Positions 1 to 44,386 of a DNA stretch of 64,000 nt are shown here, piece after piece (the first letter of the stretch is position 1; each line of letters begins with the position of its first letter). The translations under genes were made by a program, and so were the position numbers. The notes below the pieces were generated by a model. The model was not told the DNA's origin and searched no databases. It was given only the letters and a program-made list of their open reading frames with translations. Origin of the DNA: an uncultured Candidatus Saccharibacteria bacterium. GTDB lineage: Bacteria; Patescibacteriota; JABMPQ01; JAQVVF01. The stretch covers positions 265,852-329,851 of the forward strand of contig CAZNOH010000001.1 in NCBI GenBank assembly GCA_964574655.1, given 5' to 3'.

Positions 1-676
1 AAGTGAGAAGGATATTGTTGAATCTGAAGCCAAGAAAGCTCCTGGTTTAGAATTGGCGAGATCAAAAGAATTAGATGGGCTTGTAAGTCGAGCTGATGAA
101 ATTGCTGATGATTTAAAAAATGATCGAAATATAAAAGCTGAAAAGCTGATTGGACTTGACGATGCTTTGGGAAAATTGAGAGTTAATTTTGGCGTGGAAG
201 GCGAAACTATGACAATTGCTGAATTAAAAAAGGTACCAGATGTTGCAGAGAATGCAAGAATTTATGGAAAAATAGAGCGTGCAGTTGAACAAAATAAAGC
301 TAATGGAATTGATGAAGTTACTTATCTTACTCCTGGCATAGCAAGAAAGTTGGTATCTGTTTTCAAGCCAAATCAGTCCATGTCTTTGAATAGTCTTGAA
401 GTAATGACTGATGAGGTGGCTGAAGTTTTGGGTCGAGCAGAAGGTATAAATATTCGATTGTCAAAATTAAATATTTTAACTGGAGGACAATTGCGAAGTC
501 TTTTAGCAAAAACTAATACGATTAGTTTGCGGGGTTTGGATATTGCGCGAGTTGATAGGGATTTAGTGATAACTATAAACCAATGTGCTGGAAGAATTAT
601 TATGAATGGTAAGCAGATTGATCAATTAAAAGAACTTTTTCCTCAGTTCAAATTTCCTAGAATTATGGGACATTAA
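1..676 (+). CDS. Paralogous-family protein A, 5'-truncated by the window edge; conserved N-terminal domain plus LRR-like C-terminal repeats
   Basis: ORF 53..676 stays open in the same frame back to nt 2 (SEKDIVESEAKKAPGLELAR), matching the N-terminus of the next gene. Shares a ~70-aa N-terminal block (GLELA..ELD.VV..D.LA..LE.D.N...EKL..L..ALG.LKVNFG..GETMTIAELKK) with ORFs at 753, 10975, 19705, 20467 and 21364. Confidence 0.6.
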   Translation, partial: SEKDIVESEAKKAPGLELARSKELDGLVSRADEIADDLKNDRNIKAEKLIGLDDALGKLRVNFGVEGETMTIAELKKVPDVAENARIYGKIERAVEQNKANGIDEVTYLTPGIARKLVSVFKPNQSMSLNSLEVMTDEVAEVLGRAEGINIRLSKLNILTGGQLRSLLAKTNTISLRGLDIARVDRDLVITINQCAGRIIMNGKQIDQLKELFPQFKFPRIMGH

Positions 677-752
677 TTAATAATTTTATATGCAAAAATA
701 TATTTTGGTAATAAATTCAGGTTTAATCTTTTAGATTGTTAAAGAAATTTTT

Positions 753-1400
753 ATGATAGAACATTTCGGCGAAAAAATTAGTCAAGCAGATATTGTTGAA
801 TCTGAAGCCAAGAAAGCTCCTGGTTTAGAATTGGCGAGAACGTCAGAATTAGATGAAGTCGTAAGTCAGGTTGACCAATTAGCTGGTGATTTAGAGAGTG
901 ATCGAAATATTCAAATTGAAAAGTTAATTGGGCTTGATGAAGCTTTGGGAAGATTGAAAGTTAATTTTGGGGCAAAAGGTGAGACGATGACAATTGCGGA
1001 ATTGAAAAAAGTACTAGATATTGAACACAATACTGGGATTTTTCGAGAGATTGAAGATGGTCATTTTGAACGAATTTCTAGGTTGACTTATATTACTCAA
1101 GATATAGCGAGAATATTATGTAAGCGACGAGGATTATTACACTTGGCCAATCTAACGTCAATTTCTGATGAAATTGCAGCGATATTTGGTCAGAAGATTG
1201 GCAACGGTATAGTTTTGTGGAATTTACGAAATGTTTCTGAAGCTCAAATAAGAAGTATGTGTCAAAATGGACGCAGTATTGGTTTGGATAGATTAGAAAA
1301 TTTGACGCCAAATTTGGCAAGATTATTGGATGAATTTGATAGAAATGAGCAGATTGATATGTCTGACAGTCTAAAAGAAAAAGTGGAAAAATTAATTTAA
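753..1400 (+). CDS. Paralogous-family protein B (tandem to A); C-terminal L..L..LT.ISDE.A..L repeats
   Basis: 215-aa ORF. N-terminus is near-identical to the preceding gene; C-terminus has leucine-rich ~24-aa repeats. No signal peptide. Confidence 0.6.
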   Translation: MIEHFGEKISQADIVESEAKKAPGLELARTSELDEVVSQVDQLAGDLESDRNIQIEKLIGLDEALGRLKVNFGAKGETMTIAELKKVLDIEHNTGIFREIEDGHFERISRLTYITQDIARILCKRRGLLHLANLTSISDEIAAIFGQKIGNGIVLWNLRNVSEAQIRSMCQNGRSIGLDRLENLTPNLARLLDEFDRNEQIDMSDSLKEKVEKLI

Positions 1401-2655: not shown

Positions 2656-4374
2656 ATGGATAAACTTTGGCAGGTAAAAGAAAAAGTTAGTGAAGATTTT
2701 ATTAATAAATTTCCAGAATTCGATTCTATAGTTTTGCAATTGTTATATAATCGTGGAATTAGTAATCAAGAAAAAATTGATGAATTTTTTAATCCAGATT
2801 ATTCTCAAGATTTATACGATCCTTTTTTACTGAAAGATATGGATCGGGCAGTTGATAGAATTTTGCAGGCATTAAAAAATAAAGAGCGAGTGGGAATTTT
2901 TGGCGATTATGATGCAGACGGAGTGACTTCGTCTGTTTTGCTGACGGAATTGTTCAAGAAAATTGGTTTAGCTGGACAGGTTTATATTCCTGATCGAGTT
3001 TCAGAAGGCTATGGTATGAATAAAAAAGCAATTGATTGGCTGGCAAAAAAAGATATTAAATTAATTGTAAGTTGTGATTGTGGTGTTTCAAATAGAGAAG
3101 AGATTGATTATGCAAAAGAAAAATATGGGATTGATTGTGTGATTACCGATCATCATAATGTACCGTACGATTATGATGAAAAATATATTGTTGTTGACTC
3201 GAAAAGAAATGGCGATAAATATCCGTATAAAGAATTGGCGGGAGTGGGAATTACATTTAAGTTGGCACAGGCTATTTTTTCTCGAATAAAATCTCGAATA
3301 TCTTCGAATGCGATCTCTAATGATTTTGAAAAGAGTTTGCTTGATCTTGTGACGATTGGAACGATTGCAGATTGTTCGCCAATTATTTCTGAAAATAGGA
3401 CGTTAGTTAAATATGGATTAAAAATAATAAAAGAGACGAAAAGAATTGGTTTGCAAAGTTTAATGCAAATTGCCAGAGTTGATGCTAAAACTGTTGATAG
3501 TGATAGAGTTGGTTTTGCAATTGCACCAAGAATTAATTCAGCTGGTAGAATGGATCGAGCTTCAGCTTCGTATATGTTGTTAATTACTGATGATTTAGAC
3601 AAGGCGGTTTGGCTTTCTAAAAAAATTGATAAAACGAATTCAAGTCGTCAAGCTTTGACAAGCAAATTAGTTGATGAGGCAAAAAAGAAAATTGGTGATG
3701 TCAAAAATCAAAAAGTATTGATGGCATCTGGTTGGAAATGGCCATTAGGTGTTGTTGGAATTGTTGCTGGCAAAATTTGCGAGGAATATAATCGGCCAAC
3801 TTTGATTTGTGGCAAAGGTTTGATTGAATCTGTTGGTTCAGCTAGAAGCATTCCAGCTTTTGATATTATTTCTGCAATTTCGTCTTGCAAAGATTTGCTA
3901 TTAGAATATGGTGGGCATAAACAAGCAGCTGGATTTTCTTTAAAAAATGAAAACTTTGAAAAGTTTCATCATAAACTAGAAAAATTGGCGGATGATATAT
4001 TGACTGAAAAAGATTTACAGCCAGTGATTGAAATAGATAGTGAAGTTGATTTTAAAGATGTAAATTGGAATCTGTACGAAAAACTATTAGATTTTGAACC
4101 GCATGGAATTGGAAATCAAAAACCAGTTTTTTTGGCAAAAGATATTCAAGTTGTAAATGCTTACAATGTTGGTAAAACAAAAAAACATTTGAAAATGAAA
4201 ATTAAATTTGATTCTGATAGTCGAATTTTTGATGTAATTGGTTTTAATCACGGGCATCGTTTAGAAGAATTAAGCAGTGATAAGCGGATGGATATTGTTT
4301 TTCAGCTTGATTGCAATGAGTGGAATGGAGAACATATCTTACAACTTAGATTGATTGATTTTCGGATTGATTAA
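2656..4374 (+). CDS. recJ: Single-stranded-DNA-specific exonuclease RecJ
   Basis: DHH-family motifs (GDYDADGVTSS, ITDHHN) plus DHHA1-like region; length 572 aa. Confidence 0.85.
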   Translation: MDKLWQVKEKVSEDFINKFPEFDSIVLQLLYNRGISNQEKIDEFFNPDYSQDLYDPFLLKDMDRAVDRILQALKNKERVGIFGDYDADGVTSSVLLTELFKKIGLAGQVYIPDRVSEGYGMNKKAIDWLAKKDIKLIVSCDCGVSNREEIDYAKEKYGIDCVITDHHNVPYDYDEKYIVVDSKRNGDKYPYKELAGVGITFKLAQAIFSRIKSRISSNAISNDFEKSLLDLVTIGTIADCSPIISENRTLVKYGLKIIKETKRIGLQSLMQIARVDAKTVDSDRVGFAIAPRINSAGRMDRASASYMLLITDDLDKAVWLSKKIDKTNSSRQALTSKLVDEAKKKIGDVKNQKVLMASGWKWPLGVVGIVAGKICEEYNRPTLICGKGLIESVGSARSIPAFDIISAISSCKDLLLEYGGHKQAAGFSLKNENFEKFHHKLEKLADDILTEKDLQPVIEIDSEVDFKDVNWNLYEKLLDFEPHGIGNQKPVFLAKDIQVVNAYNVGKTKKHLKMKIKFDSDSRIFDVIGFNHGHRLEELSSDKRMDIVFQLDCNEWNGEHILQLRLIDFRID

Positions 4375-4431: not shown

Positions 4432-5694
4432 ATGAGAAAAAAAATATGGTTTTTGTTTGTTGTAGTTCTTTTTGTGTTTTGTTTCGGTAAAATTAGTTTG
4501 ACGAACGCGGCGACGGGCGCGTGGGTAGATAAGACAGGAAATTTATCAGGATCTAGTATTTTTTCTATAATTCAAGCGACAGATGGCTCAATTTATGCGG
4601 GAGGATATGATTTTTCTTCTAGTTCAGCAAAAGTCTGGAGATATTCAGCAGGCGCATGGATAGATATTACGGGAACTTCATTAGAAACTCGGATTAGTTC
4701 TTTAATTCAAGCGGCAGATGGCTCGATTTATGCGGGAGGATTTCGTTGTATTGATTCGGTGGTTTGCAGCAGTACTTCTGCCAAAGTTTGGAATTATTCA
4801 GGAGGCGTATGGACAGATGTTACAGGAGCTTTGTCAGGATCTTCGATTAGTTCTTTAATTCAAGCGGCGGACGGCACTCTTTATGCAGGAGGAAAGAGCA
4901 ATGATTATCCTTGGGCGAGAGTCTGGAAATATTCAGCAGGCGCATGGCAAGATATTACGGGAACTATTTTAGGATCTAGTATTTTTACTTTAGCGCAAGG
5001 GGCTGATGGTTCAATTTATGCGGGAGGAGACGGCACTTCTGCTGGTCCAGCTAAGGTTTGGAAATATTCAGCAGGCGCATGGATGGATATCACAGGAGCT
5101 TTATATGGCGGAGCTGTTTCTTCTTTGGTCAGAGCTTTTGATGGTTCTATTTATGCTGGAGGAACTAGCGGTGATAATGCTATCGTTTGGAAATATACTT
5201 TTGATGTTTTAGAACAACAAGAATATAATCTTGAAAAAGGAGAGCGAGTTGTTTTGATGCAGGGATTAGATAATCAATCTATTTCTGGTCAAGATTTAGC
5301 AATTAATTTTACGAAACTTCCAACAAAATTAATCAAGAATAATAAATATTGGATGAAATGGAATAAACTAAGCAAATATCCAAATAAAACATTTTTGAAA
5401 AATTGGAAATTAACAACTAATCTTTATAAATATAAAGTTAAAAAATCATCACAGAAATTTAAAATTAAAGTTTCGTTTAATTATACCAAGAAAAATTTAA
5501 AGAAATTTTTAAAGAAAAATAAATCAGCGACAAAATCAAATTTAATTATGAAATACAAACAAGGCACTTCTTGGAAAGATATTACTTCAGTCTTTACTGA
5601 TGCCAAAGTTATAAAAAAGAATAAGAAATTCATTGTTAAATATTTCACTAATTTTCCGGTCAAGACTCAATATTTTGCGATTGGGGTTAAATAA
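4432..5694 (+). CDS. Secreted repeat protein (six ~45-aa DGSIYAGG...AKVW.YSAGAW.DITG repeats) with Lys-rich C-terminal domain
   Basis: N-terminal signal peptide (MRKKIWFLFVVVLFVFCFG...TNA), internal tandem repeats, and a ~110-aa K-rich tail ending KYFTNFPVKTQYFAIGVK that is shared with ORF 49598..51226. Confidence 0.5.
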   Translation: MRKKIWFLFVVVLFVFCFGKISLTNAATGAWVDKTGNLSGSSIFSIIQATDGSIYAGGYDFSSSSAKVWRYSAGAWIDITGTSLETRISSLIQAADGSIYAGGFRCIDSVVCSSTSAKVWNYSGGVWTDVTGALSGSSISSLIQAADGTLYAGGKSNDYPWARVWKYSAGAWQDITGTILGSSIFTLAQGADGSIYAGGDGTSAGPAKVWKYSAGAWMDITGALYGGAVSSLVRAFDGSIYAGGTSGDNAIVWKYTFDVLEQQEYNLEKGERVVLMQGLDNQSISGQDLAINFTKLPTKLIKNNKYWMKWNKLSKYPNKTFLKNWKLTTNLYKYKVKKSSQKFKIKVSFNYTKKNLKKFLKKNKSATKSNLIMKYKQGTSWKDITSVFTDAKVIKKNKKFIVKYFTNFPVKTQYFAIGVK

Positions 5695-5817: not shown

Positions 5818-6258
5818 ATGTCAACAACAGATTATATAGACAGTAAAAAAACAAAAGAATTAGATATTTATACTGATGGAGGATCAAGAGGTAATCCTGG
5901 GCCAGCAGGAATTGGGGTTGTTATTTATAATTCTGATGGTTTAGCAGTTGAAAAAGTTTCTGAATTTATTGGTGAGGCAACAAATAATCAGGCTGAATAT
6001 AATGCGTTGATTGTTGGTTTGCAGGAAGCGCAAAATTATAAAGCAAAATCTGTTCATTGTTATTTGGATAGCGAGTTAGTAGTAAAACAATTGAAAGGAC
6101 AATATAAAGTCAAAAATAAAAACATGAAGCCTTTGTTTTCGGTTGTTCAAGGATTAATCAAAGATTTTGAAAGCGTGAAATTTACGCACATACTGCGTGA
6201 AAAAAATAAGGAAGCCGATAGATTGGTTAATGAAGCTCTTGATAAGGCGGAGAGTTAA
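5818..6258 (+). CDS. rnhA: Ribonuclease HI
   Basis: IYTDGGSRGNPGPAGIGVVI and EATNNQAEYNALIVGL motifs with the catalytic DEDD arrangement. Confidence 0.85.
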   Translation: MSTTDYIDSKKTKELDIYTDGGSRGNPGPAGIGVVIYNSDGLAVEKVSEFIGEATNNQAEYNALIVGLQEAQNYKAKSVHCYLDSELVVKQLKGQYKVKNKNMKPLFSVVQGLIKDFESVKFTHILREKNKEADRLVNEALDKAES

Positions 6259-6382
6259 AAGTTATAAAGTTCATAAAGTTATAAAGTTCGTAAAGTTGAG
6301 CGATTGATTTGGAAATTGCTAAATAGTTTTATTATTTTCTTGTTTTGTTGTTTTATGGCTTAATCAAGCCTATAAAATTGTA

Positions 6383-6416: not shown

Positions 6417-6930
6417 GACTCAAGTAAGTTGAGTGATTGCTTCTCGCTATGTAAAAGTGGTGAGGAGAGGAAAGTCCGGGCATCAATTCGGAAGTCAGAT
6501 ATCGGATGTCGGAGGTCGGATCGTTCCGATTTCCGAAGCTCCGATTTCCGACTTCCGAATTAAGTGGTAGTTCCGAAATGGAACCAAGGATAAAAAGTAA
6601 TCTGTTCTTCTTAAGAGAACTGATTATTTTGAACCTAGGACAAGTACCACAGAGACATATACCGCCTAGCGCATTTATGTGCTAGGTAAGGGTGAAAAGA
6701 GTGGTTTAAGAGACCACAGATTGTTATGGTGACATAACAATAGGGCAAACTCTACCTGATGCAACCCAATATAAAACTGGGGCTTGAGCTGGCAAGCGAT
6801 TGCCAGCCTAGAGAGATAATCACTGAATCGCGAATTTACACAAATTTTTCACAAATGGTATTCGTGATATTTGTGCTATATTTGTGCAAATTCGCGATTC
6901 TACAGAACCTGGCTTATAGACTTACTTGAG
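6417..6930 (+). ncRNA. rnpB: RNase P RNA (bacterial type-A-like) with two large hairpin insertions
   Basis: GGAAAGTCCGGGC (P4 5' strand, 6468-6480), GGGTGAAAAGAGTGGTTTAAGAGACCACAG (P10-P12 consensus), ACAGAACCTGGCTTA (P4 3' strand) and P1 pairing of CTCAAGTAAGT (6420-6430) with ACTTACTTGAG (6920-6930). No ORF; locally GC-rich. Confidence 0.7.
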
Positions 6931-7071
6931 TTTTTTAATCGCGAATGTACACAAATTCACCACAAATATCACAAATGTTTTCAACAAGGGCTTGTTGATT
7001 TTTTTTATGTTTAAGGTTAGAATATTAATAGTTTACAGTTAATTATTTTCTAATAACTATCTTTTGTTAAC

Positions 7072-8457
7072 ATGAAACGATCCGAGTTATTTTTTACAGC
7101 TGTATTAGTTCCATTGGATTTTATAATGCTTGTTTTGGCAGCAATTTCTGCCTATTTTTTGAGGTTTACTACTTATTTTGTTGATATTAGAGAAGTAAAA
7201 TTTGATTTGCCTTTTTCGCATTATATTGTTTTTGTTGCTGTTATTGCTTTAACTTGGTTATTGATTTTTTCTTTTTTGGGACTCTATGATGTAAAAAAGA
7301 AAAGAAGATTTGTTGATGATCTCTATCTAGTGTTTGTTGCAGTCTCAACTGGCATGGCGGCAATATTTGCATATTTGTTTTTTTCTCAAGAATTATTTGG
7401 TTCGCGTTTTATTGTTCTAGTGGTTTGGTTTTTCAGCATTGTTTATGTTGTTACTGCTCGTCAATTTGTGAAGATTTTCAAAAAATGGCTTTATCGTTTC
7501 AATATTGGCGTTCATCGAGTTGTTTTAGTTGGCCTTAATCCAATCAGTCAAAGCATTGTTAAATATTTAACAGAAAAAAAATATTCTGGCTACAAAGTTG
7601 TTGCAAGAATTAAAAGTTTCGATGAGACAGTTGAAGGAACATTGGAGAGAATATCACAACGAAAAGGCATAGATGAAATTATTCAGATTGATCCAAAATT
7701 GTCGAAAGGTCAGGTTTTATCTTTGATTGATTTTGCTGATGAAAGAAAGATTGATTTTAAATATGCTCCGGATCTTTTTGGGACTCAGGCAACAAACATT
7801 GATGTAGAAACTTTTTATGGCGTGCCGATTGTTTGTTTAAAAAGAACACCATTGGATGGATGGGGCAGAATAATTAAAAGAATCGTTGATGTAATTATTG
7901 CTGTTATTCTATTGTTGATTTTGTCACCAATTTTTTTGATAGTTTCTATAATTGTAAAAATTGATTCAAGAGGTCCTGTGTTTGTGAGACTGAAACGTGT
8001 TAAAAAAGATGGAGAATTCTATATTTTTAAATTTAGATCAATGGTTAAGAATGCTCATAAAATGAAAGAAGAGCTATTGAAATACAGCGAGAGAAAGGGT
8101 CCGTTATTCAAGATGAAAGATGATCCAAGAGTTACAAGAATTGGCGGGTTTTTGAGAAAAACAAGAATTGATGAATTGCCACAGTTAATGAATGTTGTTC
8201 GCAACGAGATGAGCTTGATCGGTCCAAGACCGCATGAACCGCAAGAAGTAGAAAAATATACAAAACATCAAAGACGAGTTTTAGAAATTAAGCCTGGAAT
8301 GACAGGAATGGCGCAAGTTTCTGGAGCTTCAGATCTTAGTTTCAATGAAGAAGTCAGATTGGATACTTATTATATTGAGAGTTGGTCTTTGTTGTTAGAT
8401 TTACAGATTTTCTTGAAGACAATACTTATTGTTCTAACAATGAGAGGAGCAGCGTAA
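7072..8457 (+). CDS. Polyprenyl-phosphate sugar phosphotransferase (WbaP/WcaJ-like bacterial sugar transferase)
   Basis: N-terminal TM helices; C-terminal sugar-transferase domain (RIIKRIVDVIIAVILL...SPIFLIVSIIVKIDSRGPVFV, ELPQLMNVVRNEMSLIGPRP). Confidence 0.85.
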   Translation: MKRSELFFTAVLVPLDFIMLVLAAISAYFLRFTTYFVDIREVKFDLPFSHYIVFVAVIALTWLLIFSFLGLYDVKKKRRFVDDLYLVFVAVSTGMAAIFAYLFFSQELFGSRFIVLVVWFFSIVYVVTARQFVKIFKKWLYRFNIGVHRVVLVGLNPISQSIVKYLTEKKYSGYKVVARIKSFDETVEGTLERISQRKGIDEIIQIDPKLSKGQVLSLIDFADERKIDFKYAPDLFGTQATNIDVETFYGVPIVCLKRTPLDGWGRIIKRIVDVIIAVILLLILSPIFLIVSIIVKIDSRGPVFVRLKRVKKDGEFYIFKFRSMVKNAHKMKEELLKYSERKGPLFKMKDDPRVTRIGGFLRKTRIDELPQLMNVVRNEMSLIGPRPHEPQEVEKYTKHQRRVLEIKPGMTGMAQVSGASDLSFNEEVRLDTYYIESWSLLLDLQIFLKTILIVLTMRGAA

Positions 8458-8458
8458 C

Positions 8459-8585
8459 GAATTTCTAATTTCTAATTTTAAATTTCTATTAAATTTTAAA
8501 TGAATAAATTTTTAAACTCTTGACGAAACTATTGTTAAGGTTTGAAAATTAAGTAATTAGAAATTTAATAGAAATTAGAAATTGA
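8459..8585. repeat. MITE-like palindromic element, family 1 (TIR AATTTCTAATTTCTAATTT / AATTTAATAGAAATTAGAAATT)
   Basis: ~125-bp intergenic element with terminal inverted repeats; a second copy lies at 25257..25395 with a near-identical TIR and core (TTTTTAAACTCT). Confidence 0.55.
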
Positions 8586-8602
8586 TAATTAAAAATTTTA
8601 AT

Positions 8603-9727
8603 ATGAAGGTCGCTTTAGTACATGATTTTTTAAATCAAGTTGGCGGGGCTGAAAAGGTCTTGGAAATTTTTCATGAAATTTTTCCAAGAGCTCCAGTATA
8701 TACTATCACTTACGATGAAAAAGAAACTCGCGGTGTTTTCAAACATCTGAACATCAAAACTTCTTTTATTCAGCGTTTGCCTTTTGGTGTGAAGCAATAC
8801 AAGTGGTATATATCAATGATGCCAGCAGCTATTGAGCAGTTTGATTTTTCAAAGTATGACATTGTTTTGTCTGATTGTTCTGCATTTTCAAAAGGCGTGA
8901 TTGTTAGACCAGAGACTTTGCATATAAGCTATGTTCATTCTCCAACAAGATATCTTTGGAATGATACTCATAGCTACACTGAAGAAATAAAACAGCCTGG
9001 CGTTATTAAAAAAATGTTGCCTTTGGTTTTGCAAAAGATTAGAACTTGGGACCAATTAGCGGCGCAAAGAGTTGATAAAATGATTGCTAATTCAAAAACT
9101 GTTTCTGAAAGAATTGAAAAATATTATAAAAGAAAAAGCGATATTATATATCCGCCTGTTGAGACAGGCAAGTATTATATTTCTAATGACATTGATGATT
9201 ATTTTTTGGTTGTTTCAAGACTTCGTCCTTATAAAAGGGTTGATTTAGTTGTTGAAGCTTTTAATGCTTTGAGATTGCCTTTGAAAGTTATTGGAACTGG
9301 CGAGGAATTACAGACTTTGAAAAAAATGGCAAATGATAATATCGAATTTTTAGGTCCTGTATCTGATAAAGAAAAAGCATATTATCTTTCAAGATGTAGA
9401 GCTTTTATACATCCACAAGAAGAAGATTTTGGTATTACTGCTTTGGAAGCAATGGCATCTGGAAGGCCAGTTATTGCTTATAAAAAAGGCGGAGCTGTAG
9501 AAACAGTAATTCCTGGGAAAACCGGTATCCTGTTTGAAGATCAATCTCCATGGAGTTTGGTTGATGCTGTGAGAGACTTTAAAGAAGAAGATTTTAATCC
9601 AGAGGAAATAAGAAAGCGCGCATTGGATTTTGATATCAAATTGTTCAAAGACAGAATAGAAAAATATATTTTTGATTCATATAAAAATTTCAAGAATAAA
9701 AGGGAAGATTATTATAAGGTTAGTTAA
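8603..9727 (+). CDS. Glycosyltransferase family 4
   Basis: MKVALVHDFL start, EDFGITALEAMASGRPVIAYKKGGAVETV GT4 C-terminal signature; upstream TTG at 8582 is an alternative start. Confidence 0.8.
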   Translation: MKVALVHDFLNQVGGAEKVLEIFHEIFPRAPVYTITYDEKETRGVFKHLNIKTSFIQRLPFGVKQYKWYISMMPAAIEQFDFSKYDIVLSDCSAFSKGVIVRPETLHISYVHSPTRYLWNDTHSYTEEIKQPGVIKKMLPLVLQKIRTWDQLAAQRVDKMIANSKTVSERIEKYYKRKSDIIYPPVETGKYYISNDIDDYFLVVSRLRPYKRVDLVVEAFNALRLPLKVIGTGEELQTLKKMANDNIEFLGPVSDKEKAYYLSRCRAFIHPQEEDFGITALEAMASGRPVIAYKKGGAVETVIPGKTGILFEDQSPWSLVDAVRDFKEEDFNPEEIRKRALDFDIKLFKDRIEKYIFDSYKNFKNKREDYYKVS

Positions 9728-10265: not shown

Positions 10266-10874
10266 ATGCATCCAAAAAATTATATTCAAGTAATTTTAAG
10301 GCACAAATTTACAATAATTGCCTGTATTGTTTTGTGTGGTTTAACGGCACTGATTTACGCTTATGTAAAACCTCAAGCTTTTAGTTCGAACATTTCAATG
10401 TCTTTTCATCGCGTAAATAAAGAAGCAACAGTTGATTATCAGTATGATAATTATTATGCTGGCAAGGCAGTTGAAATTGTTTCCAACACTGTAGCTGGCT
10501 GGTTGCAAACTCCGAATATTGTCCAGGAAATTTATACAGAAGCAAAGGTAACTCCAGACGATATTTATAAAGATGCAAAGAAATTTAAACCAAAACAAGT
10601 TTCTGCTCATCAAGTGGAAATGAGATTGGTAAATAAAAATAGACAAGATTTAGAAAAATTATCTAAAGCAACTGTTGCGGTAATGAAAAATAAAGTGGCG
10701 AATTTGGAAGTTACAAATGAGCAAAAAAATGCTTTTGATGTGATTTCTGAAGATCCAATAATTACGGAAGTAAAATATAGTCCATTGATGTTGGCTTTGA
10801 TTGGTCTTGTTGCTGGATTGTTTGTTGGCATTGGATTGGCTTTTCTTTGGGAATACTTTAGCGAGACAGATTAG
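10266..10874 (+). CDS. Polysaccharide chain-length-determinant-like (Wzz-like) bitopic membrane protein
   Basis: N-terminal and C-terminal TM helices around a soluble domain; C-terminal GLAFLWEYF resembles Wzz family ends; lies in the glycan locus. Confidence 0.45.
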   Translation: MHPKNYIQVILRHKFTIIACIVLCGLTALIYAYVKPQAFSSNISMSFHRVNKEATVDYQYDNYYAGKAVEIVSNTVAGWLQTPNIVQEIYTEAKVTPDDIYKDAKKFKPKQVSAHQVEMRLVNKNRQDLEKLSKATVAVMKNKVANLEVTNEQKNAFDVISEDPIITEVKYSPLMLALIGLVAGLFVGIGLAFLWEYFSETD

Positions 10875-10925
10875 GCAAGCGCTGATTTTACGCTGATTTC
10901 TAACGCTGATGTGACGCTGATTGAT
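10875..10925. repeat. Intergenic repeat family 3 (CAAGCGCTGATTT.ACGCTGATTTCTAACGCTGAT.TGACG.TGAT)
   Basis: Near-identical ~52-nt copy at 24396..24447; both start right after a stop codon. Confidence 0.6.
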
Positions 10926-10974
10926 GCAAAATTAAAGAAGGGATATTGTTCTGTCATTTTATTTTTATATATTT

Positions 10975-11991
10975 GTGCCAAGATCACCAGAACAGCCATC
11001 ACAATTAGCTGATATTCAAAAAGAAACTGGAGAAAAAGCTCCAGGTTTTGAAATTGCTAAAACTCCAGAATCAAAGAATTTCGTTGATGTTGTTGGTAAT
11101 TTAGCAGAAAAAGTGGAGCGAGATGAGAATGTAACAGCAGGAGAAGTTCTAGATTTAGAACAAGCATTGGACAGATTAATCGAATCAGATCCAAGATTAG
11201 AAGCAAAAAGATTGTTTGGCGAGAGCTATATGGGACCAGATGAGATAGAAAGACATTTTACTCTAGAAAGCGGTGAGAAGCTATTTGAATATACTCCTAA
11301 ACAAAGACAAAGAATTAATCAAATGCTCAGAGAAAAGCTAGCTGATCCGCAAATCAAAGATTTAATCAAGAGAACACTAAGAGAAGAATTAAGGCAGAGA
11401 TTTCAACTTTTTCTTTTTCCAGATAAATTCAAAGATGGAACAAAAGTAACAATGAAAAGTCTGAATGACAAATTCCAGCCAGAAATGACAAGACGAGGTT
11501 CGGGTAAATTATTATTCGATACAAGTTGGTACAAAAATGAAGAATTCTTTACTTCTGATTCCAATCCTCTATCTTGGAAGTTATTAAGCCGTGGCAATAT
11601 CGAAGGATCAAATAACAAGAGCTATATTGAAGAAACAAGATTTTTTAGAGAATATTTGAGGCAAAACAATTTAGCTACAGCTGATGAATTAAAAGAATGC
11701 AGTGATGAAAGATTAGCAAAATTAGAACGATTAATGGCAACGAACTGGAAAAAAGCTGGAAAGCAACTATCAGAACTAAGGATTAATAAGAAATACCGGA
11801 TTAATCCTTTCGAAATTATTTTTATTCATGCTGCTAACAAAAGCGGATTGACTAAATATGCTAGGACTGCAAAGCGCTCGTCTGATGGGAGGTTGGTCCG
11901 TGCTGGGCGCTGTGATTCCCTTGGCGCGGATGTGATTTGTTGGAGGCCTGTCGATGCCCTTGACGGTGTGGGTGTTTCTGTCTCCCGCTAG
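10975..11991 (+). CDS. Paralogous-family protein C (conserved N-terminal domain; divergent C-terminus with GC-rich tail)
   Basis: GEKAPGFEIAKTPES...LAEKVERDENVTAGEVLDLEQALDRL aligns with the family N-domain; the last ~45 codons (11860-11991) are far more GC-rich than the rest. Confidence 0.5.
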   Translation: MPRSPEQPSQLADIQKETGEKAPGFEIAKTPESKNFVDVVGNLAEKVERDENVTAGEVLDLEQALDRLIESDPRLEAKRLFGESYMGPDEIERHFTLESGEKLFEYTPKQRQRINQMLREKLADPQIKDLIKRTLREELRQRFQLFLFPDKFKDGTKVTMKSLNDKFQPEMTRRGSGKLLFDTSWYKNEEFFTSDSNPLSWKLLSRGNIEGSNNKSYIEETRFFREYLRQNNLATADELKECSDERLAKLERLMATNWKKAGKQLSELRINKKYRINPFEIIFIHAANKSGLTKYARTAKRSSDGRLVRAGRCDSLGADVICWRPVDALDGVGVSVSR

Positions 11992-13214: not shown

Positions 13215-13340
13215 TATCTAAATTCTAAACAAATTTAAATGCTCAAAACTAAAAAATTAAAAACCGACGTTAGTTTTTGAATTTTGGTATTTAAGTTTTG
13301 GATTTGTTTAGGATTTAGAAATTAGTGCTTAGAGTTTTTT
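13196..13340. repeat. Palindromic intergenic element, family 2 (CTAAACAAATT(C/T)AAA ... TTTGGATTTGTTTAGGATTTAGA)
   Basis: Copies at 2508..2650, 13196..13340, 17405..17540 and 46365..46512; each overlaps the stop codon of the upstream gene and ends just before the next start. Confidence 0.6.
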
Positions 13341-14582: not shown

Positions 14583-17408
14583 TTGGCAGAGATTTTTGGA
14601 GTTATGTTAAACAAAAACAAATTTAGGATTATTGGCGATGTGGCGGACTTTAATAATGGTCCGGAGATTTTAGATTTGCGTGAAATTGCTAAAGCTAGAA
14701 AAGAAGAAGAAAAGATAAGAATAGAAAAAGATTTAATTAATTTAAAGTCTTGTAAAAGAGAAGAAAATGTTGTTGATGAGAAGCCGGAAATTGTAGAACA
14801 AAAGGAGAGTTTAAATCTAGAACAGATAAAAGAGAAAATTCAGAAACCGCAAGTAACGGAGAGGCCAATTTTGTCAGAGAGCAATGACGACGAGAAGATT
14901 TTGGTTAAACATAATGATTACGCAAAGCCAGTTGTTTTACAGCAATCTGTAGAGACGTTGCATTGCAACGTCTTGTCGCAAGCAGAAAAAAATGAGAAGC
15001 CGTTGGTTATTGAAGATTCGAAATCAAAAGCGAAGAAGATGTCTTTTGGCCAATCTTGGTTGCAAAGACAAGCTGAAAAGAAGATATTAAGGAATAAAAA
15101 ACTAGCTGAAATTAAAAGATTGAAATTTGAAAAGCGAGCTCAGATACAAGAGTTGAAAAAAGCTAAATTATTACAGAAGCAGAATTTAAAGCTAAAAAAA
15201 GAATTGGAGAAAAGAGAATCAAAAAAGAGATGGTTGCTGGCAAAGCAGGAGGTTGAGCAGAAAAAGCAAAAAGAAAAAGAAATGTTGCGTAAAAAAATAT
15301 TTTTACAAAAACAGCAGTTAGGACAACAAGGATTAGAGCAAGGAAGATTAATCAAGAAACAGATGTCAAGGCAACAAAAACCAAAAGTCGATTATTTGTT
15401 ATTATTCAGAAATAGATTTAATAAAGGACTAGGATTTTCTATAATTGCTTTTATTTTTGTGGGTGTTGTTCTGTTTTCAGGAGTTAAGGGATTAGATTTT
15501 TTTAATACCCAAGCTAAAGATACGAAATCAAAAATATTAAGTGATGCTTTAGTTGCTTATCAATATATGGGATCAGCAACAAATTCTGCAACTAGTACAG
15601 ATTTTGAAATGGCATCATATAAATTTGGCGTGGCAGGCGATAGATTCTTGAATGCTCAAAAAGATTTGAATCAGTATGGAGAAGTACTGACTTCAATGTT
15701 GAAAATTATGCCTGGAGCATCAGCTGTTAGATCAGGCGATAATTTACTTTCTGCTGGCGCTAATTTGTCAAAAGCAGGAGAATACGTGACTTTAGCAGTA
15801 ACGCCTTTTAATGATTTAGGCAGTTTTATCAGTTTGCCAGGAAATTCTGATAGCAATCAGAAATCTTCATTAACAGAATTATTATCTGAAGCAACAAATA
15901 ATTTGAATTTAGCAATTGGTAAGTTAGACACAGCTAATTCTGATTTAAAAAATGTAAAAATTTCTGATTTGCCGTCAGATGTTGGACCAAAAATTGCAAC
16001 AATCAAAGATAATTTACCTAAAATAAGTTCCGATTTAAAAACATTAGTTTCCTATTCGGATTATTTTTTGCAGATGCTTGGACATAAGGGCGCAAAAAGA
16101 TATCTAGTATTATTTGAGAATAATAGAGAATTAAGGCCAACTGGCGGTTTTATGGGAACATATGCTTTGGTTGATATTGATTCTGGCAAAATAAAAAATA
16201 TTAAAATTGAAGGTCCATATAATTTGGATGGCAATTTAATGGAAAAAATAATTGCGCCAGAACCATTAAGATTGATTCAAGTAAAATTATTTTTAAGAGA
16301 TTCTAATTGGTTTTTAGATTTTCCGATGTCAGCAAAAAAAGTAATGTCAATGTATGAAAAATCTGGCGGACCAACTGTTGATGGCGTTTTTACGGTAACT
16401 GGCAATGTAATGGAAGCATTGTTAAATGTTACAGGCGATATTGATATGCCAGAATATAATACAAAAGTTAATGCAAGTAATTTTTTTGATGAAACGCAGT
16501 GGGAAGTTGAATATGATTACGATAAAGAACAAAATGAGCCGAAAAAATTCCTTGCTGATTTATTTCCAGTATTTATTGACAGATTAGCAAAATTAGATAA
16601 GGATAAATGGTTAGAAACTGCAAATGTTATGTATAAGATGCTTGATCAGAAAGATATAATGATGTATTTTACAGATGAAAAATTAGAAAATTTTGTTAAG
16701 GAATTCAATTGGACTGGCGAGATAAAGAATCCTAGCAAAGATTATTTATCAACTGTAATAACAAATATTGGCGGTGGAAAAACAGATAACGTGATTGATC
16801 AGAAAATCTTGCATGAAGCGGAAATTTCAGAGGATGGATCAGTTATTGACACAATTACGATTACTAGAATTCATAATGGCGATCCAGACAATATGTGGAC
16901 TGGTGTTAAGAATATGTCGTATATGAGATTTTATGTTCCTTTGGGAAGCGAGTTGCTAGAAGCGAAAGGTTTTGATAAAGAATTCTGGGGAGTCTTAAGG
17001 CCATTGGAAGAAGGTTCTAATCCTGATCCTATGATTTCAAATATTGAGAGCAATATGAAAGTTAATAATGAAAATGGAATTAGAATAATGGAAGAAGGCG
17101 GTAAAACAGTTTTTGGCAATTGGATTGGTGTTGAATGCGGTCAAGCAAAAACCATGGTTATAAAATATAAATTGCCATTTAAAGTTAAAAATTCTGGCCA
17201 AGATGTAGCAACTTCTTATGGAATGTTTTTTCAAAAACAGCCAGGCACAAAAGCTTTTGAAACAACAAGTATTTTGAAATATCCAATAGATTATTATGTA
17301 AATTGGAAATATTCTTCTGATAATTTGTTAAGCGATGTTGCGGATGGATTGCAATATAGAACGAAATTGAATAAAGATAAAGCATATGCTGTTGTCTTCG
17401 TTAAATAA
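14583..17408 (+). CDS. DUF4012 domain protein with K/E-rich coiled-coil N-terminus and one TM helix
   Basis: RYLVLFENNRELRPTGGFMGTYALVDIDSGKIKNIKIEGPYNLDG is the DUF4012 hallmark; TM segment GLGFSIIAFIFVGVVLF; 941 aa. Start is ambiguous (ATG at 14604 is an alternative). Confidence 0.7.
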   Translation: MAEIFGVMLNKNKFRIIGDVADFNNGPEILDLREIAKARKEEEKIRIEKDLINLKSCKREENVVDEKPEIVEQKESLNLEQIKEKIQKPQVTERPILSESNDDEKILVKHNDYAKPVVLQQSVETLHCNVLSQAEKNEKPLVIEDSKSKAKKMSFGQSWLQRQAEKKILRNKKLAEIKRLKFEKRAQIQELKKAKLLQKQNLKLKKELEKRESKKRWLLAKQEVEQKKQKEKEMLRKKIFLQKQQLGQQGLEQGRLIKKQMSRQQKPKVDYLLLFRNRFNKGLGFSIIAFIFVGVVLFSGVKGLDFFNTQAKDTKSKILSDALVAYQYMGSATNSATSTDFEMASYKFGVAGDRFLNAQKDLNQYGEVLTSMLKIMPGASAVRSGDNLLSAGANLSKAGEYVTLAVTPFNDLGSFISLPGNSDSNQKSSLTELLSEATNNLNLAIGKLDTANSDLKNVKISDLPSDVGPKIATIKDNLPKISSDLKTLVSYSDYFLQMLGHKGAKRYLVLFENNRELRPTGGFMGTYALVDIDSGKIKNIKIEGPYNLDGNLMEKIIAPEPLRLIQVKLFLRDSNWFLDFPMSAKKVMSMYEKSGGPTVDGVFTVTGNVMEALLNVTGDIDMPEYNTKVNASNFFDETQWEVEYDYDKEQNEPKKFLADLFPVFIDRLAKLDKDKWLETANVMYKMLDQKDIMMYFTDEKLENFVKEFNWTGEIKNPSKDYLSTVITNIGGGKTDNVIDQKILHEAEISEDGSVIDTITITRIHNGDPDNMWTGVKNMSYMRFYVPLGSELLEAKGFDKEFWGVLRPLEEGSNPDPMISNIESNMKVNNENGIRIMEEGGKTVFGNWIGVECGQAKTMVIKYKLPFKVKNSGQDVATSYGMFFQKQPGTKAFETTSILKYPIDYYVNWKYSSDNLLSDVADGLQYRTKLNKDKAYAVVFVK

Positions 17409-17540
17409 AATCCTAAATCCTAAATCCTAAATCCTAAATAAATTCAAAATTCTAATGACTAAAATAAAAAAAATGACGTTTTCTTATTTTAATTTTTGAT
17501 TTTGGATTTATTTAGGATTTAGAGTTTTGATTTTTTTAAT
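17405..17540. repeat. Palindromic intergenic element, family 2 (copy with a 4x AAATCCTAA left arm)
   Basis: AATCCTAAATCCTAAATCCTAAATCCTAAATAAATTCAAA ... TTTGGATTTATTTAGGATTTAGAG. Confidence 0.6.
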
Positions 17541-17543
17541 ATT

Positions 17544-19283: not shown

Positions 19284-19682
19284 ATGCCAAAAATAATTAT
19301 TGCATCAGGTCCGGTTATTATTGAAAATAATAAGGTGCTTTTAAATAAACATGGAGATGATAATTTCTGGAAATTTCCTGGTGGCAAAGTAGAAAATTTT
19401 GATTTTAAAGATTGGAATAATTCTTTGGAAGAGGCTGCAAAAAGAGAAGTAAAAGAAGAAATGGGAATTGGTGTAAAGATTATTAATCCTTTAAAGACAA
19501 TGATGATTCCAAAACCAAATTAAAAAGATTCATATGTTGTTTTGGTTCATTTTTTGGCGGAAAGAATTGGAGATGTAAAACCTGGTATAGATATTAAAGA
19601 ATGGAAATGGATTGAGATTAATAATTTGCCAGAAGATTGTGCGCCAAATGTTACGATAGTTCTAAAGTCTTTAAAGTTATAA
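19284..19682 (+). pseudogene. NUDIX hydrolase interrupted by an in-frame TAA (19521-19523)
   Basis: N-part has the Nudix box GGKVENFDFKDWNNSLEEAAKREVKEEMGI; reading continues in the same frame after TAA (KDSYVVLVHFLAERIGDVKP...WKWIEINNL) to a stop at 19680-19682; the parts total ~131 aa, a normal NUDIX length. Confidence 0.6.
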
Positions 19683-19704
19683 AGTTTATAAAGTACCAAA
19701 ATAA

Positions 19705-20464
19705 TATGTCAGAAAACATTGAAGAAAGATTAGCGGAAGTTCAAGATATCTCTGCTTCTGAAAAAGAAAAGAGAGAGTCTGGTTTGGAATTGGCAAGAGG
19801 GAAAGAATTGGATGAAGTTGTTAAATCAGCTGATAATTTGGCGGGAAAAATTGAGAGTGATGAGAATGTTAAAGGCGAAGATGTTTTGAAATTGGAGGAG
19901 GCTTTGGGAAAAGTGAAGGTCAATGTCTATGGTGAGGAGCTAATCATTGAAGAAATAAGAAAGATACCAGATTGGCGGCAAAATATGGAAATTTGGCATA
20001 AAATTATGGCGATGGAAGGATCGGAAGTCGATGTAGCTCAAGTTGATACGTTAACGCGACAAATAACTTTTTTGCCAGTTGAGGTGGCACAAAAAATTAT
20101 TACTTTTAGTTTAGGTGAGAGATTAAATTTTCCAGTACTAAAAACTGTTTCTAGCAAGACAGCAAGTGTTTTAGCAACTCATGAAGAATTATTTTTAGGC
20201 ATAGAAAAACTAAGTTCAGATGCAACTAGACATTTAGGTCAACAAAAAGGAGTGTTGTATATGTCTGATGTAAAATATCTTTCTGATGAAGTAGTCAGAT
20301 ATTTGAGTTTGCATAAAGGCAGATTATATCTGCCAAGATTAGAAGATGTGTCTGATCAAGCTATAAAATTATTAGCAAAAATGGGTTCTAGATTGCAAGT
20401 AGGGTTAAAGATTGAGAAAAGAATAAATGAAATTAAAAGCAAAAAATTTAAATTTTGGAGATAA
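19705..20464 (+). CDS. Paralogous-family protein D (conserved N-terminal domain plus LRR-like C-terminus)
   Basis: ESGLELARGKELDEVVKSADNLAGKIESDENVKGEDVLKLEEALGKVKVNVYGEE; the upstream extension to 19637 overlaps the NUDIX tail and is unlikely. Confidence 0.55.
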
Positions 20465-20466
20465 TT

Positions 20467-21252
20467 ATGCCAGAAAATATTGAAGGAAAATTAGCGCAAG
20501 CTCAGGATGTTTCTGCTACTGAAAAAGAAAGTAGAGGGCCTGGTTTGGAATTGGCAAAAAGTGAAGAAAAAGGTGGCGTGATTGAAGTAGTAAGTGAAAT
20601 ATCTCAAGCATTAGAAAAAGATGATCCGGTTACACAGGAAAAAGTTGATAAATTAGAGGAAGCTTTGCAAAATGTAAAAGTTGATTTTGGCGGTGAGGGA
20701 ATTCCAATAGTTGAAATAAAAGACGATCCAGAAATGATGAATAATATAAGAATTTGGAATATGATTAAGTCTGGAAGCTTGGATGGGATAGGTGTTTTTA
20801 TGATGGCTCGTGATTTGACAAGAATTACGCCTGGGATTTTAAAAATAATTGTTAGTCATAGTGCTGCCTGGGATTCATTATCTTTAAGAGAAGTATCTAT
20901 TTTTTCTGACGATTGTGCAAAGGAATTAAGAGGCTATAATGGTTTTATTGATTTAAGATTAGTTACAAATTTGTCAGATGAAGCAATGGATGATTTGGCG
21001 CATAATACAAATAATGCTATAAATTTGAAAGCAATAACTAGTCTTTCTGATAGACAAGCTCTTGCTTTAAGTAAATTGAAGGGTAGCGTATATTTGGATA
21101 ATTTGGAATCAATTTCTGAAACAGGAATAAGACATTTAGCAAGAAATGATAGAGATAAAATCGTTTTGTCTGGAGAAATGGATGAAAAGGTCGAGAGATA
21201 TCGATCAACTTGGTCTAAATTGAAAAAACGGCTTAGCAAAACAAAAAAATAA
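20467..21252 (+). CDS. Paralogous-family protein E (tandem to D; LRR-like C-terminus)
   Basis: GPGLELAKSEE...LEEALQNVKVDFGGEG N-domain; C-terminal repeats L.L..VTNLSDEAMDDLA / INLKAITSLSDRQALALSKL. Start is 3 nt after the stop of D. Confidence 0.55.
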   Translation: MPENIEGKLAQAQDVSATEKESRGPGLELAKSEEKGGVIEVVSEISQALEKDDPVTQEKVDKLEEALQNVKVDFGGEGIPIVEIKDDPEMMNNIRIWNMIKSGSLDGIGVFMMARDLTRITPGILKIIVSHSAAWDSLSLREVSIFSDDCAKELRGYNGFIDLRLVTNLSDEAMDDLAHNTNNAINLKAITSLSDRQALALSKLKGSVYLDNLESISETGIRHLARNDRDKIVLSGEMDEKVERYRSTWSKLKKRLSKTKK

Positions 21253-21363
21253 CGAGATCATATATCTCGTTTTTTGATTGAAAAAAATCTGTTAATTACT
21301 AATGTGATTTTCCCAATTATTATGTTATACTTATGTTAGTTTTTAATAATTAATTTTAAAATT

Positions 21364-21594
21364 ATGGCAGTTGATAAAGAATCAGGTGTGCCTGAGGATG
21401 TAAAAGGTTGGGAGGCACCAGAAAGTGAAAAAGCAATAAAGGAAGAAGCAGAAAAATTATCAAGTTTGGAAGAGCAACTAAATAAGGCGAAAATCATTTT
21501 TCAAGGAGAAGAGATGACGGTTGGAGAGCTTAGAAGACGAATGAAAGAAGATCCTACTCTTTTAGAACAAGCAAAATCTTCTGATAAAAAATAA
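21364..21594 (+). CDS. Short paralogous-family member F (N-terminal domain only, 76 aa)
   Basis: LEEQLNKAKIIFQGEEMTVGELRR parallels the family core LDEALGRLKVNFGAKGETMTIAELKK. Confidence 0.4.
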   Translation: MAVDKESGVPEDVKGWEAPESEKAIKEEAEKLSSLEEQLNKAKIIFQGEEMTVGELRRRMKEDPTLLEQAKSSDKK

Positions 21595-40228: not shown

Positions 40229-40244
40229 TTCGGGCCTCCTTTTA

Positions 40245-44369: not shown

Positions 44370-44386
44370 TAATGAGAACTGATGTC

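Follow-up and report, generated by a model that had tools for sequence, protein, structure and literature searches.

A patescibacterial family of modular proteins joining a conserved N-terminal module to variable, predicted leucine-rich repeats

The 64,000-nucleotide stretch of contig CAZNOH010000001.1 analysed here (the window) carries six members of a previously undescribed family of soluble and modular proteins, in which a conserved N-terminal module (N-module) is mostly followed by what, by their sequence, are leucine-rich repeats (LRRs). The solvent-exposed strand positions of the concave face of these LRRs are the most variable positions of the family, the genes multiply locally as tandem copies whose presence changes from one close relative to the next, and orthologues differ by duplications and a new order of their repeat units. 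The model we propose, to which we give a probability of about 0.4, combines these properties: the N-module would be the constant handle of a set of variable LRR binders, all of them docked onto a shared partner. The family is a plausible but unproven candidate for molecular recognition in bacteria of the candidate phyla radiation (CPR).

Results

Six open reading frames share an N-terminal block

An earlier note on this DNA had described six open reading frames (ORFs) with a common N-terminal block. All six lie on the + strand, their similarity is significant and it is exclusive to them among the 940 ORFs of the window. The positions given for them hold with small corrections, since D starts at 19706 instead of 19705 and A, cut by the window edge, occupies 2-676; the spacers of 76 nt between A and B and of 2 nt between D and E are as claimed. 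The members and the features placed among them are the following.

2-676, + strand (frame 2; 5' end truncated by the window edge): member A, full protein of 233 residues (P0002), with the N-module, a degenerate LRR region and a '..QLKELFPQF..' tail resembling the tail of the 'LTSAEGLVLP' repeat subtype.
690-734, + strand: decayed copy of the ackA 5' end, 'MQKYILVINSGLIF' followed by a stop codon, in the A-B spacer.
753-1400, + strand: member B, complete, 215 residues, with its stop 4 nt before ackA (1405).
10975-11991, + strand: member C, 338 residues, GTG start, with about 68 N-module residues and then a different alpha/beta domain of about 270 residues, no repeats.
19706-20464, + strand: member D, 252 residues (P0003), with the N-module, about four degenerate 23-residue LRRs and a basic tail (net charge +6 over the last 15 residues).
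20467-21252, + strand: member E, 261 residues (P0004), with the N-module, about five LRRs and a basic tail (+7).
21251-21271, + strand: terminator-like hairpin at the stop codon of E, 8-bp stem with a T-run.
21364-21594, + strand: member F, 76-residue stub matching only the second helix and the hairpin of the N-module.

In BLASTP with composition correction, A and B share 49% identity (E 7e-50), D and E 34% (E 5e-28), and A matches D with an E value of 4e-24; C is joined to the other members by its N-terminal ~60 residues only (1e-6 to 4e-9) and F at 1e-3 to 2e-4. A hidden Markov model (HMM) of the N-block, searched against the 940 six-frame ORFs, retrieves the six members only (1e-15 to 5e-39), the next ORF having an E value of 0.9 and the best shuffled ORF 0.11. 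The possibility, raised at the outset, of a merely compositional or low-complexity resemblance is ruled out by the composition correction and by the shuffled-ORF control. The shared domain of about 70 residues that had been proposed corresponds to the first ~68 residues, common to all six; the members of the LRR type share more, ~100-105 residues.

The 2-nt spacing indicates that D and E are probably co-transcribed, and the hairpin at 21251-21271 is likely to mark the end of their transcription unit; five terminator-like sites of this kind are present in the region for 0.6 expected. Just upstream of D, at 19658-19694, lies a 37-nt motif of 'ATAAAGT'-type heptamers, 84% identical to another at 6260-6296 upstream of the RNase P RNA gene, which may be a promoter or UP-like element. 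F had been presented as an N-domain-only stub of 76 residues, and indeed it matches part of the N-module only (E 2.5e-5 against the profile, HMM positions 55-85). No repeat remnants were found downstream of it and it may be a decayed copy; the F protein is seen in identical form on three contigs.

The family is rare and its organism-labelled members are Patescibacteria

The earlier note did not recognise the family, and neither do the resources that we consulted. Pfam, NCBIfam, PADLOC and PHROGs give nothing above threshold for the six proteins, nor does Pfam for 120 members; the N-module is foreign to all of these and to the PDB, and the family was not found described in the literature on Patescibacteria or CPR and LRRs. 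A word-indexed homologue search was nearly empty, whether B or the N-module profile served as query, and an exhaustive search was needed to reveal the family: with the N-block profile, HMMER finds 118 cluster representatives at E<=1e-3, of which 58 at <=1e-10, in 1.84 billion proteins, and in nearly all of the 118 clusters the match covers residues ~1-100. The only organism label among the members is 'Patescibacteria group bacterium', the G+C content of their loci ranges from 0.30 to 0.42, and a scan of GTDB representatives gave no relative of the N-module. Two scans of the viral contigs of IMG/VR gave no relative of the family either and, PHROGs being equally empty, there is no evidence of a phage origin. 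The 118 clusters, the exclusive labels and the absence of viral relatives lead us to consider the family as real, rare and narrowly distributed.

A conserved acidic N-module precedes several C-terminal types

The architecture was read from an alignment of 120 sequences and from the sequences themselves. The first ~20-25 residues are disordered, conserved and acidic ('MPxPEQ..ENLADIKEP'). The N-module follows, with the pattern 'GLE(I/L)AKT', a helix, 'D..VT', a helix 'VLDLEEALG.LK' and a hairpin 'V.F.GEEMT.EE', in which G76 never varies and E26, D50 and I96 hardly do; the median net charge of the first 70 residues is -7. The connection to the first repeat is made by 'IPDLK.N..IW.EI..G' and 'LTY(I/L)T..IA..L'. 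The absence of a signal peptide, claimed for the window proteins, extends to all 120 members, which also have no transmembrane-like segment (maximum Kyte-Doolittle 19-mer 1.54). In the case of B, the disordered acidic segment (1-~25) is followed by the N-module (~26-101; strand 26-27, helices 31-48 and 55-66, hairpin 69-80, helices 81-84 and 90-101), the LRR solenoid (~110-203) and a C-cap helix (205-214).

The N-module is not an F-box, because its profile matches nothing among the PDB sequences (best E 0.04): no F-box protein appears there at E<=10, the family match to FBXL2 described below is restricted to the LRR region (residues 73-388), and Pfam gives no F-box match. Three weak leads, Csm2 in A, TRADD-like_N in E and CdiA_C_tRNase in C, were dropped since they were reproduced neither across members nor by the fold search. 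The TRADD-N match in E is a single sub-threshold one (E 0.019, 15.2 bits for a cutoff of 23.7), with no other member at E<=0.01 and no TRADD chain in the PDB search; the match of C to the tRNase toxin is likewise below threshold (E 0.0046, 17.7 bits for a cutoff of 26.5), and the fold search does not support it.

The C-termini had been said to diverge into different numbers of repeats; they do diverge, but not every member has repeats, since C carries a distinct domain instead. Besides the main LRRs, the C-terminal types of the family include a repeat flavour 'LTSAEGLVLP..IGG.L.L' with a '..L..KYPQ..' tail, which resembles that of A, the 270-residue domain of the C type and short stubs such as F. 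The C-type domain, which terminates in 'GVSVSR' in member C, has 14 homologues, several per genome, with Patescibacteria as the only organism names. One of them, P0131, carries the domain without an N-module, so that the two are separable. The domain is modelled by AlphaFold with a predicted local distance difference test (pLDDT) of 83, has no sequence or fold match, and is not recognised by Pfam, NCBIfam, PHROGs, PADLOC or the PDB.

The repeats resemble shortened FBXL-type leucine-rich repeats

Judged on their sequence, the repeats are LRRs of a variant type, with a shortened 23-residue unit that is close to the cysteine-containing (CC) type. The LRR-like nature suggested in the earlier note was borne out by the match of the family profile to the LRR region of human FBXL2 (PDB 6o60_C, E 5.3e-11) and by the solenoid of strands and helices that AlphaFold predicts, with a pLDDT of 90; the period of about 24 residues was not, the spacing being 23 residues in 157 of 222 successive pairs. 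The consensus LTSLSDxAAExLSxHxGxLxLxG, derived from 105 ungapped units of 46 proteins, has leucine at 85-91% in its core positions. The representatives contain 0-10 repeats per protein, with up to ~14 in large arrays, a cap helix '(D/E)I..QI(D/N)KFKK' seals the C-terminal end of the solenoid, and 50 of 110 members end in a tail with a net charge of at least +3.

The AlphaFold2 model of B, a prediction obtained with the 120-sequence alignment (pLDDT 90.3, predicted template modelling score 0.79), places after the helical and hairpin N-module a series of strands spaced by ~23-25 residues (153-155, 176-178, 201-203) which alternate with helices (139-146, 163-169, 186-197), and then the terminal helix. 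A Foldseek search of this model against the PDB gave no significant match; of the partial ones the top two, coupling factor B and FBXL17, are both LRR proteins of short length. None of the Pfam LRR models reaches threshold in the six window proteins or in the 120 members, the sole match being LRR_EndoS (E 0.0088). The repeats show the LRR sequence pattern and, in the predicted model, the parallel-strand solenoid, and they escape detection by curated profiles.

The CC-type LRRs of FBXL2, FBXL17 and Skp2 share with the family the register LxLxG-(C/L)-xx-(I/L)-(T/S)-D-x-(G/A)-(L/A)-xx-L, the unit made of a strand and a helix, and a small helical domain in front of the repeats, as illustrated by the alignment of the family 'sLeLsGLtsLSDeaaesLskhkg' with 'hLnLnGCtkITDstcysLsrfCsklk' of FBXL2. 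On the other hand, the unit of the family has 23 residues and not 26, owing to a deletion of three residues after the helix, leucine replaces the signature cysteine and LSD replaces ITD, so that the repeats are not canonical CC-type LRRs and represent a related but distinct variant. Furthermore, the module that precedes them is not an F-box and the hosts are bacteria without a ubiquitin system. A further close parallel is offered by the GALA-LRRs of Ralstonia effectors, which have a 24-residue unit.

The concave face is hypervariable and the repeat units are shuffled

The fast diversification suspected in the earlier note was confirmed at the level of surface positions, repeat order, substitution rates and gene content. 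Within the repeat, the entropy of the structural leucine and alanine positions is 0.5-0.9 bits, and it is highest at positions 18 (3.84) and 20 (3.58), the outward residues of the xLxLx strand on the concave face, which are rich in Y, F, W and D. A single gene compared between loci L086 and L087 illustrates the shuffling of the units: the N-parts are identical at 122 of 129 residues, and the arrays, of 8 and 7 units, contain identical units at different ranks, an exact duplication of two units, and differences located mostly in the strand residues.

The comparison with locus L078 of a close relative gives the rates. The flanking genes (AckA, RecJ, RNase H and a sugar transferase) are 80-92% identical to those of the window, with a ratio of non-synonymous to synonymous substitution rates (dN/dS) of 0.06-0.15 at dS 0.7-0.9; the family genes of the same locus are only 64% identical to A and 39-44% to B, with a dN/dS of 0.31-0.44 overall and of 0.5-0.6 in the repeat part, 3-6 times that of the flanking genes, these ratios being rough because dS is near saturation. 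Moreover, A is a mosaic: its N-module resembles one L078 copy more closely (76 vs 59%) and its C-part is nearer to the second copy (68 vs 54%), which points to recombination between tandem paralogues. Hypervariation driven by a diversity-generating retroelement (DGR) was considered and rejected: there is no pair of template and variable repeats, the long DNA repeats of 1-23000 that involve family genes are the paralogous N-module regions only, and the RVT_3/RNase_H match at 5818-6258 corresponds to a 146-residue protein of the RNase HI type.

Tandem duplication produces new copies, and close relatives differ in the copies that they carry

In front of ackA, a repeat (D14) joins 681-735 to 1393-1447 with 75% identity, and its translation resembles the beginning of ackA at 1405, 'MKYILVINSGSTSLKY'. 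As its sequence reads, the decayed ackA start is the footprint of the tandem duplication behind the A/B pair. An analogous situation is found in the nine-gene array of L090, whose members have near-identical 'MPNPEQP..' starts and which contains, at 10781-10945, an ORF of 54 residues starting with 'MKKVLIFGTFDLLHPGH'; this ORF seems to be left over from the cytidylyltransferase gene located downstream of the array (16011-16418), and would be the same kind of duplication footprint as the ackA remnant of the window.

The D-E pair itself is of variable occurrence. In L001, where the flanking proteins are ~90% identical to those of the window, the NUDIX fragment is separated from lepA by ~250 bp, and D, E, F and the LAGLIDADG gene are absent; in L079, a D-like/E-like pair, again spaced by 2 nt, lies directly before lepA. 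In the window, D and E are homogenised at their 5' ends, with 83% DNA identity in the first 60-100 nt and ~50% beyond. At the same variable spot, L001 shows a second indel, ~1.8 kb between murJ and the NUDIX fragment (7731-9505) that the window, with a gap of ~200 bp there, does not have. The window also has a 15-codon fragment of a lepA 5' end ('MVKDIKSIRNFCIIA', 21688-21732) just upstream of a free-standing LAGLIDADG/helix-turn-helix gene (21779-22600). The fragment is nearer to the start of the L079 LepA than to that of its own genome, the intact lepA (22611-24395) having a different N-terminus ('MNINLIRNFSIIAH'), and it looks like the insertion of the homing-endonuclease gene duplicated or replaced the lepA 5' end.

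The earlier note had proposed to determine the copy number in this genome and in its relatives. The family proteins of the window are recorded on one NCBI contig of 654,272 bp, and the genome has at least seven members, one of which, P0007, adjoins ftsQ on the same contig. The close relative WC663 has at least 21 copies, among them the nine-gene array of L090, the two copies before ackA (L078), four more genes of the LRR type and at least six of the C type. Arrays of 2-4 genes are present in L076, L080, L083, L084 and L085. In the lineage of the window, the neighbours are mixed housekeeping genes, often 4-100 nt downstream (ackA, lepA, ftsQ, ligA, hrcA-dnaK), and there is no conserved partner gene among them.

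In a sister lineage, arrays are bracketed by a MoxR-class ATPase and a putative VWA protein

In the loci L088 (a 55.8-kb contig, G+C 0.42) and L089, respectively 7 and 10 consecutive family genes, abutting or overlapping each other, are inserted between two conserved genes. The upstream gene encodes a 637-residue AAA_5 ATPase that is 87% identical between the two loci, and the downstream one a protein of ~678 residues that is 83% identical; the array members in between differ in number and share no more than 60% identity. CbbQ (E 2e-8) and NorQ (E 6e-8), both of them MoxR-class AAA+ proteins, come closest to the ATPase. The 678-residue protein is 55% identical, over its full length, to a 647-residue protein encoded inside the L085 array, which has a weak, sub-threshold match to the von Willebrand factor A (VWA) model VWA_2 (E 5.8e-5, 24.1 bits for a cutoff of 27). 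[quoted passage not shown] The ATPase and the putative VWA protein occur together in L088 and L089, and L085 has the putative VWA partner. PADLOC recognised no defence system on the MoxR-linked loci. An archaeal origin of these loci was rejected, the ribosomal protein L2 of L088 being bacterial.

The same operon adjoins a serine recombinase gene in L089 (108-1424, minus strand) and is flanked in L088 by two genes of TrmB-family regulators (2800-3540 and 19786-20532), a setting which suggests that the cassette made of the MoxR gene, the array and the VWA gene may be a mobile or separately regulated island.

Discussion

A constant handle for variable binders

In the model that we favour, the LRR face would be a ligand-binding surface and the paralogues would constitute a repertoire of binders differing in their specificity. 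The constant acidic N-module, with its near-invariant glutamate and aspartate, and the disordered tail would act as the common handle by which each paralogue docks onto one and the same partner. The candidate for this partner would be a MoxR-class AAA+ ATPase together with a VWA protein; this MoxR/VWA machine is the best candidate that we can offer, in view of the sister-lineage operons in which 7-10 family genes lie between a CbbQ/NorQ-like ATPase and a NorD/CbbO-like protein with a putative VWA domain, and it is less likely than not to be the right one. The targets would likely be foreign or host proteins at the interface between symbiont and host or between symbiont and phage.

A parallel is offered by the pairs NorQ/NorD, CbbQ/CbbO and RavA/ViaA, with which the bracketed arrays share a CbbQ/NorQ-like ATPase and a ~680-residue putative C-terminal-VWA protein with a DxSxS motif. 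In such pairs, the MIDAS site of the VWA protein binds an acidic residue of the client, which the ATPase remodels (PMC9976466, PMC7159879). Furthermore, Kaur et al. 2020 (PMC7159879) have described conflict systems of a 'ternary' MoxR-vWA kind, the third component of which is variable, and the combination of a conserved ATPase/VWA core with a variable and fast-evolving third component is what L088 and L089 also display. In our case, however, this third component consists of 7-10 separate small LRR proteins and not of VMAP, iSTAND, FtsH or beta-propeller proteins, and no recognised effector domain is fused to the VWA protein: Pfam finds none of these four domains in the 120 members, and the genes located between the two conserved genes of L088 and L089 all encode an N-module and LRRs. 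The present arrangement, in which a conserved MoxR/VWA core encloses a hypervariable LRR array, would add a new variant to the ternary theme.

Several observations weigh against this model. The dN/dS values are below 1, with dS of 0.6-1.0 near saturation, and fit relaxed constraint as well as positive selection. The repeats of the window members are degenerate and barely fit the crisp consensus. The location of members directly upstream of ackA, lepA, ftsQ and ligA would also fit a housekeeping or a selfish role. As for the partner, the VWA assignment comes from a sub-threshold Pfam match and a motif, the MoxR/VWA association occurs only in three loci (L085, L088 and L089) of one lineage with a G+C content of 40-42%, neither a MoxR nor a VWA partner is present in the 64-kb window, beside the arrays of its lineage or beside the nine-gene array of L090, and the loci L073-L087 do not show the two genes side by side.

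Other possible roles of the family

The earlier note had compared the family with polymorphic effectors or adaptors. The modularity and the diversification which this comparison implied are real. The adaptor half receives indirect support from the MoxR/putative-VWA operons of another lineage, which are not seen beside the window genes or the arrays of the close relative; the effector half found no support, the proteins having no signal peptide or recognisable toxin domain and the window no immunity or secretion genes. As in the polymorphic toxin and effector families, a conserved N-module is combined with C-terminal types that are unrelated to each other, the genes form tandem arrays of many copies and their turnover is rapid; the present family differs from them by the absence of a recognisable toxin, of a downstream immunity gene and of a linked secretion apparatus, and by C-termini that are mostly binding repeats and not enzymes.

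The members could nevertheless be exported or injected effectors, a hypothesis that we regard as unlikely. The constant N-terminal ~70 residues, with the 'MPxPEQ..' peptide, would then be a signal for a non-Sec export route (type IV secretion or a pilus-related one), and the LRRs or the C-type domain would act on proteins of the host cell, an arrangement typical of polymorphic effectors. The fusion of one N-module to at least four C-terminal types is in keeping with such a role, as are the absence of a Sec signal or membrane segment, the fast evolution with copy-number turnover and repeat shuffling, and the conservation of the paralogue 5' ends at the DNA level (83% between D and E in the first 100 nt, and the starts of the L090 genes). 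The positively charged tails (50 of 110 members) recall the C-terminal signals of some type IV secretion substrates, which are also positively charged, and the very small genome (654-kb contig) would suit it as well, lineages with such genomes being generally episymbiotic. Against export stand the absence of any secretion-system gene in the 64-kb window, in any fetched locus or beside any examined array, of any recognised toxin or enzyme domain in the members and of any immunity-like gene after the copies, whose neighbours are paralogues or housekeeping genes; in addition, the genes linked to the arrays in three loci encode cytoplasmic AAA+ and VWA-like proteins and not an export machinery.

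It is quite unlikely, in our opinion, that the proteins are cytoplasmic inhibitors or immunity proteins, in which the LRR horseshoe would bind a toxin, a nuclease or a phage protein in the manner of the ribonuclease inhibitor, the arrays being collections of orphan immunity genes. A cytoplasmic location without signal peptide, tandem arrays of divergent paralogues that vary in presence, a hypervariable concave face rich in aromatic residues and an LRR class related to the ribonuclease-inhibitor and FBXL-type repeats would all be expected from such proteins. Immunity proteins, however, seldom share a conserved N-module with proteins of a different fold such as C, no toxin genes were found nearby and PADLOC is empty, and neither the strictly conserved disordered N-terminus nor the MoxR/VWA bracketing would find an explanation.

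Finally, a selfish or nearly neutral expansion, in which weakly constrained copies would duplicate in tandem into sites upstream of essential genes and hitch-hike on their transcription, would account for the copies 4-100 nt upstream of ackA, lepA, ftsQ, ligA and the cytidylyltransferase gene, for the pieces of downstream genes in the duplication footprints, for the stubs and fragments (F, P0100, P0117 and a 78-residue piece in L088), for a dN/dS below 1 and for the degenerate repeats of the window, but it is very improbable: the ORFs have remained intact in 118 clusters, structural positions are conserved and the fold is predicted with confidence, a dN/dS of 0.3-0.6 still denotes purifying selection, the variability is focused at particular surface positions, and the maintenance of 7 to more than 20 copies in genomes of 0.65-1 Mb argues for usefulness.

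Significance

Little is known of the means by which CPR bacteria and Patescibacteria, with genomes well under 1 Mb, find their hosts, adhere to them and exploit them, or withstand phages, and for most genes specific to their lineages no function has been assigned. The family described here occupies a notable share of such genomes, with seven copies or more on the 654-kb contig and no fewer than 21 in a close relative, and it bears the hallmarks of a recognition repertoire, namely the hypervariability of the concave LRR face, the shuffling of the units and the speed at which copies come and go. In their logic only, these features recall the variable lymphocyte receptors (VLRs) of the lamprey, which are among the weak profile matches of the family (E ~1e-3), and the LRRs of the plant nucleotide-binding LRR receptors (NLRs), with which they share the variability of the concave face, the shuffling, duplication and reordering of units and the many paralogues per genome. 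They differ in that the family gives no evidence of programmed somatic assembly or of a DGR or template repeat, that the LRR class is another one and that the proteins are small and cytoplasmic.

Could the handle model be extended to a germline-encoded LRR recognition repertoire in episymbiotic bacteria of ultra-small size, diversified by recombination, in which dozens of binders would be plugged into a MoxR/VWA machine by their N-handle? We consider this complete version quite improbable. If it were true, the family would be a prokaryotic counterpart, in logic, of the VLR and NLR repertoires, and one candidate for what determines the host range of CPR bacteria, in which the cassette-like reshuffling of 23-residue units would produce new specificities for proteins of the host cell or of phages. 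The system offers several experimental handles: the N-module as a bait, natural variants that have the same N-part and different arrays, and the operon link with MoxR/VWA in one lineage. Even if the function turned out to be mundane, the family would contribute the N-module and the C-type domain, both of them new, as well as a 23-residue LRR variant which is missed by the current LRR profile models.

Setting and other features of the window

The window has a G+C content of 31-33% and a strongly positive GC skew, nearly all genes being carried by the + strand. Its LepA shares 90% identity with that of L001, a metagenome-assembled genome (MAG) labelled 'Patescibacteria group bacterium', and 57-60% with the LepA of MAGs from Falkowbacteria, Magasanikbacteria, Uhrbacteria and Buchananbacteria. 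Together with the 654,272-bp contig, these identities place the organism among the CPR bacteria or Patescibacteria of small genome. The genes around the family members are ordinary ones, encoding acetate kinase, RecJ, RNase HI, RNase P RNA, sugar and glycosyl transferases, a Wzz-like protein, a DUF4012 protein, MurJ and LepA.

An island of 41-45% G+C, compared with ~32% elsewhere, extends from 38381 to 44556. It encodes an arginyl-tRNA synthetase, an arginine deiminase, a class-III aminotransferase and an amidinotransferase resembling dimethylarginine dimethylaminohydrolase (DDAH), its genes being mostly on the minus strand in an otherwise + strand region, and five tRNA-Arg genes with five anticodons (gcg, tct, tcg, cct, ccg) lie beside it. 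This island may be a horizontally acquired module for arginine use.

Intergenic repeats of ~120-150 nt are located at 2490-2646, 13217-13338 and 17426-17542, downstream of ackA, of a glycosyltransferase family 4 (GT4) gene and of the DUF4012 gene, respectively. They consist of an 'AAATTCTAAACAAATT..' half and, after it, of a 'GGATTTAGAGTTTAGGATTT..' half, which look roughly complementary, and could be terminators or repetitive extragenic palindromic (REP)-like elements.

The class A RNase P RNA match at 6421-6932 (178 bits) spans 512 nt for a model of 367 positions, which implies sizeable insertions. The ORF at 4432-5694 encodes a 420-residue protein made of tandem repeats of 135 nt (45 residues), five copies with 69-81% DNA identity, that match Reg_prop, the two-component regulator propeller. 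Lastly, 27448-28530 encodes a bacterial homologue of the archaeo-eukaryotic release factor eRF1 (baeRF family 10 together with the eRF1 domains 2 and 3), which is 89% conserved in L001.

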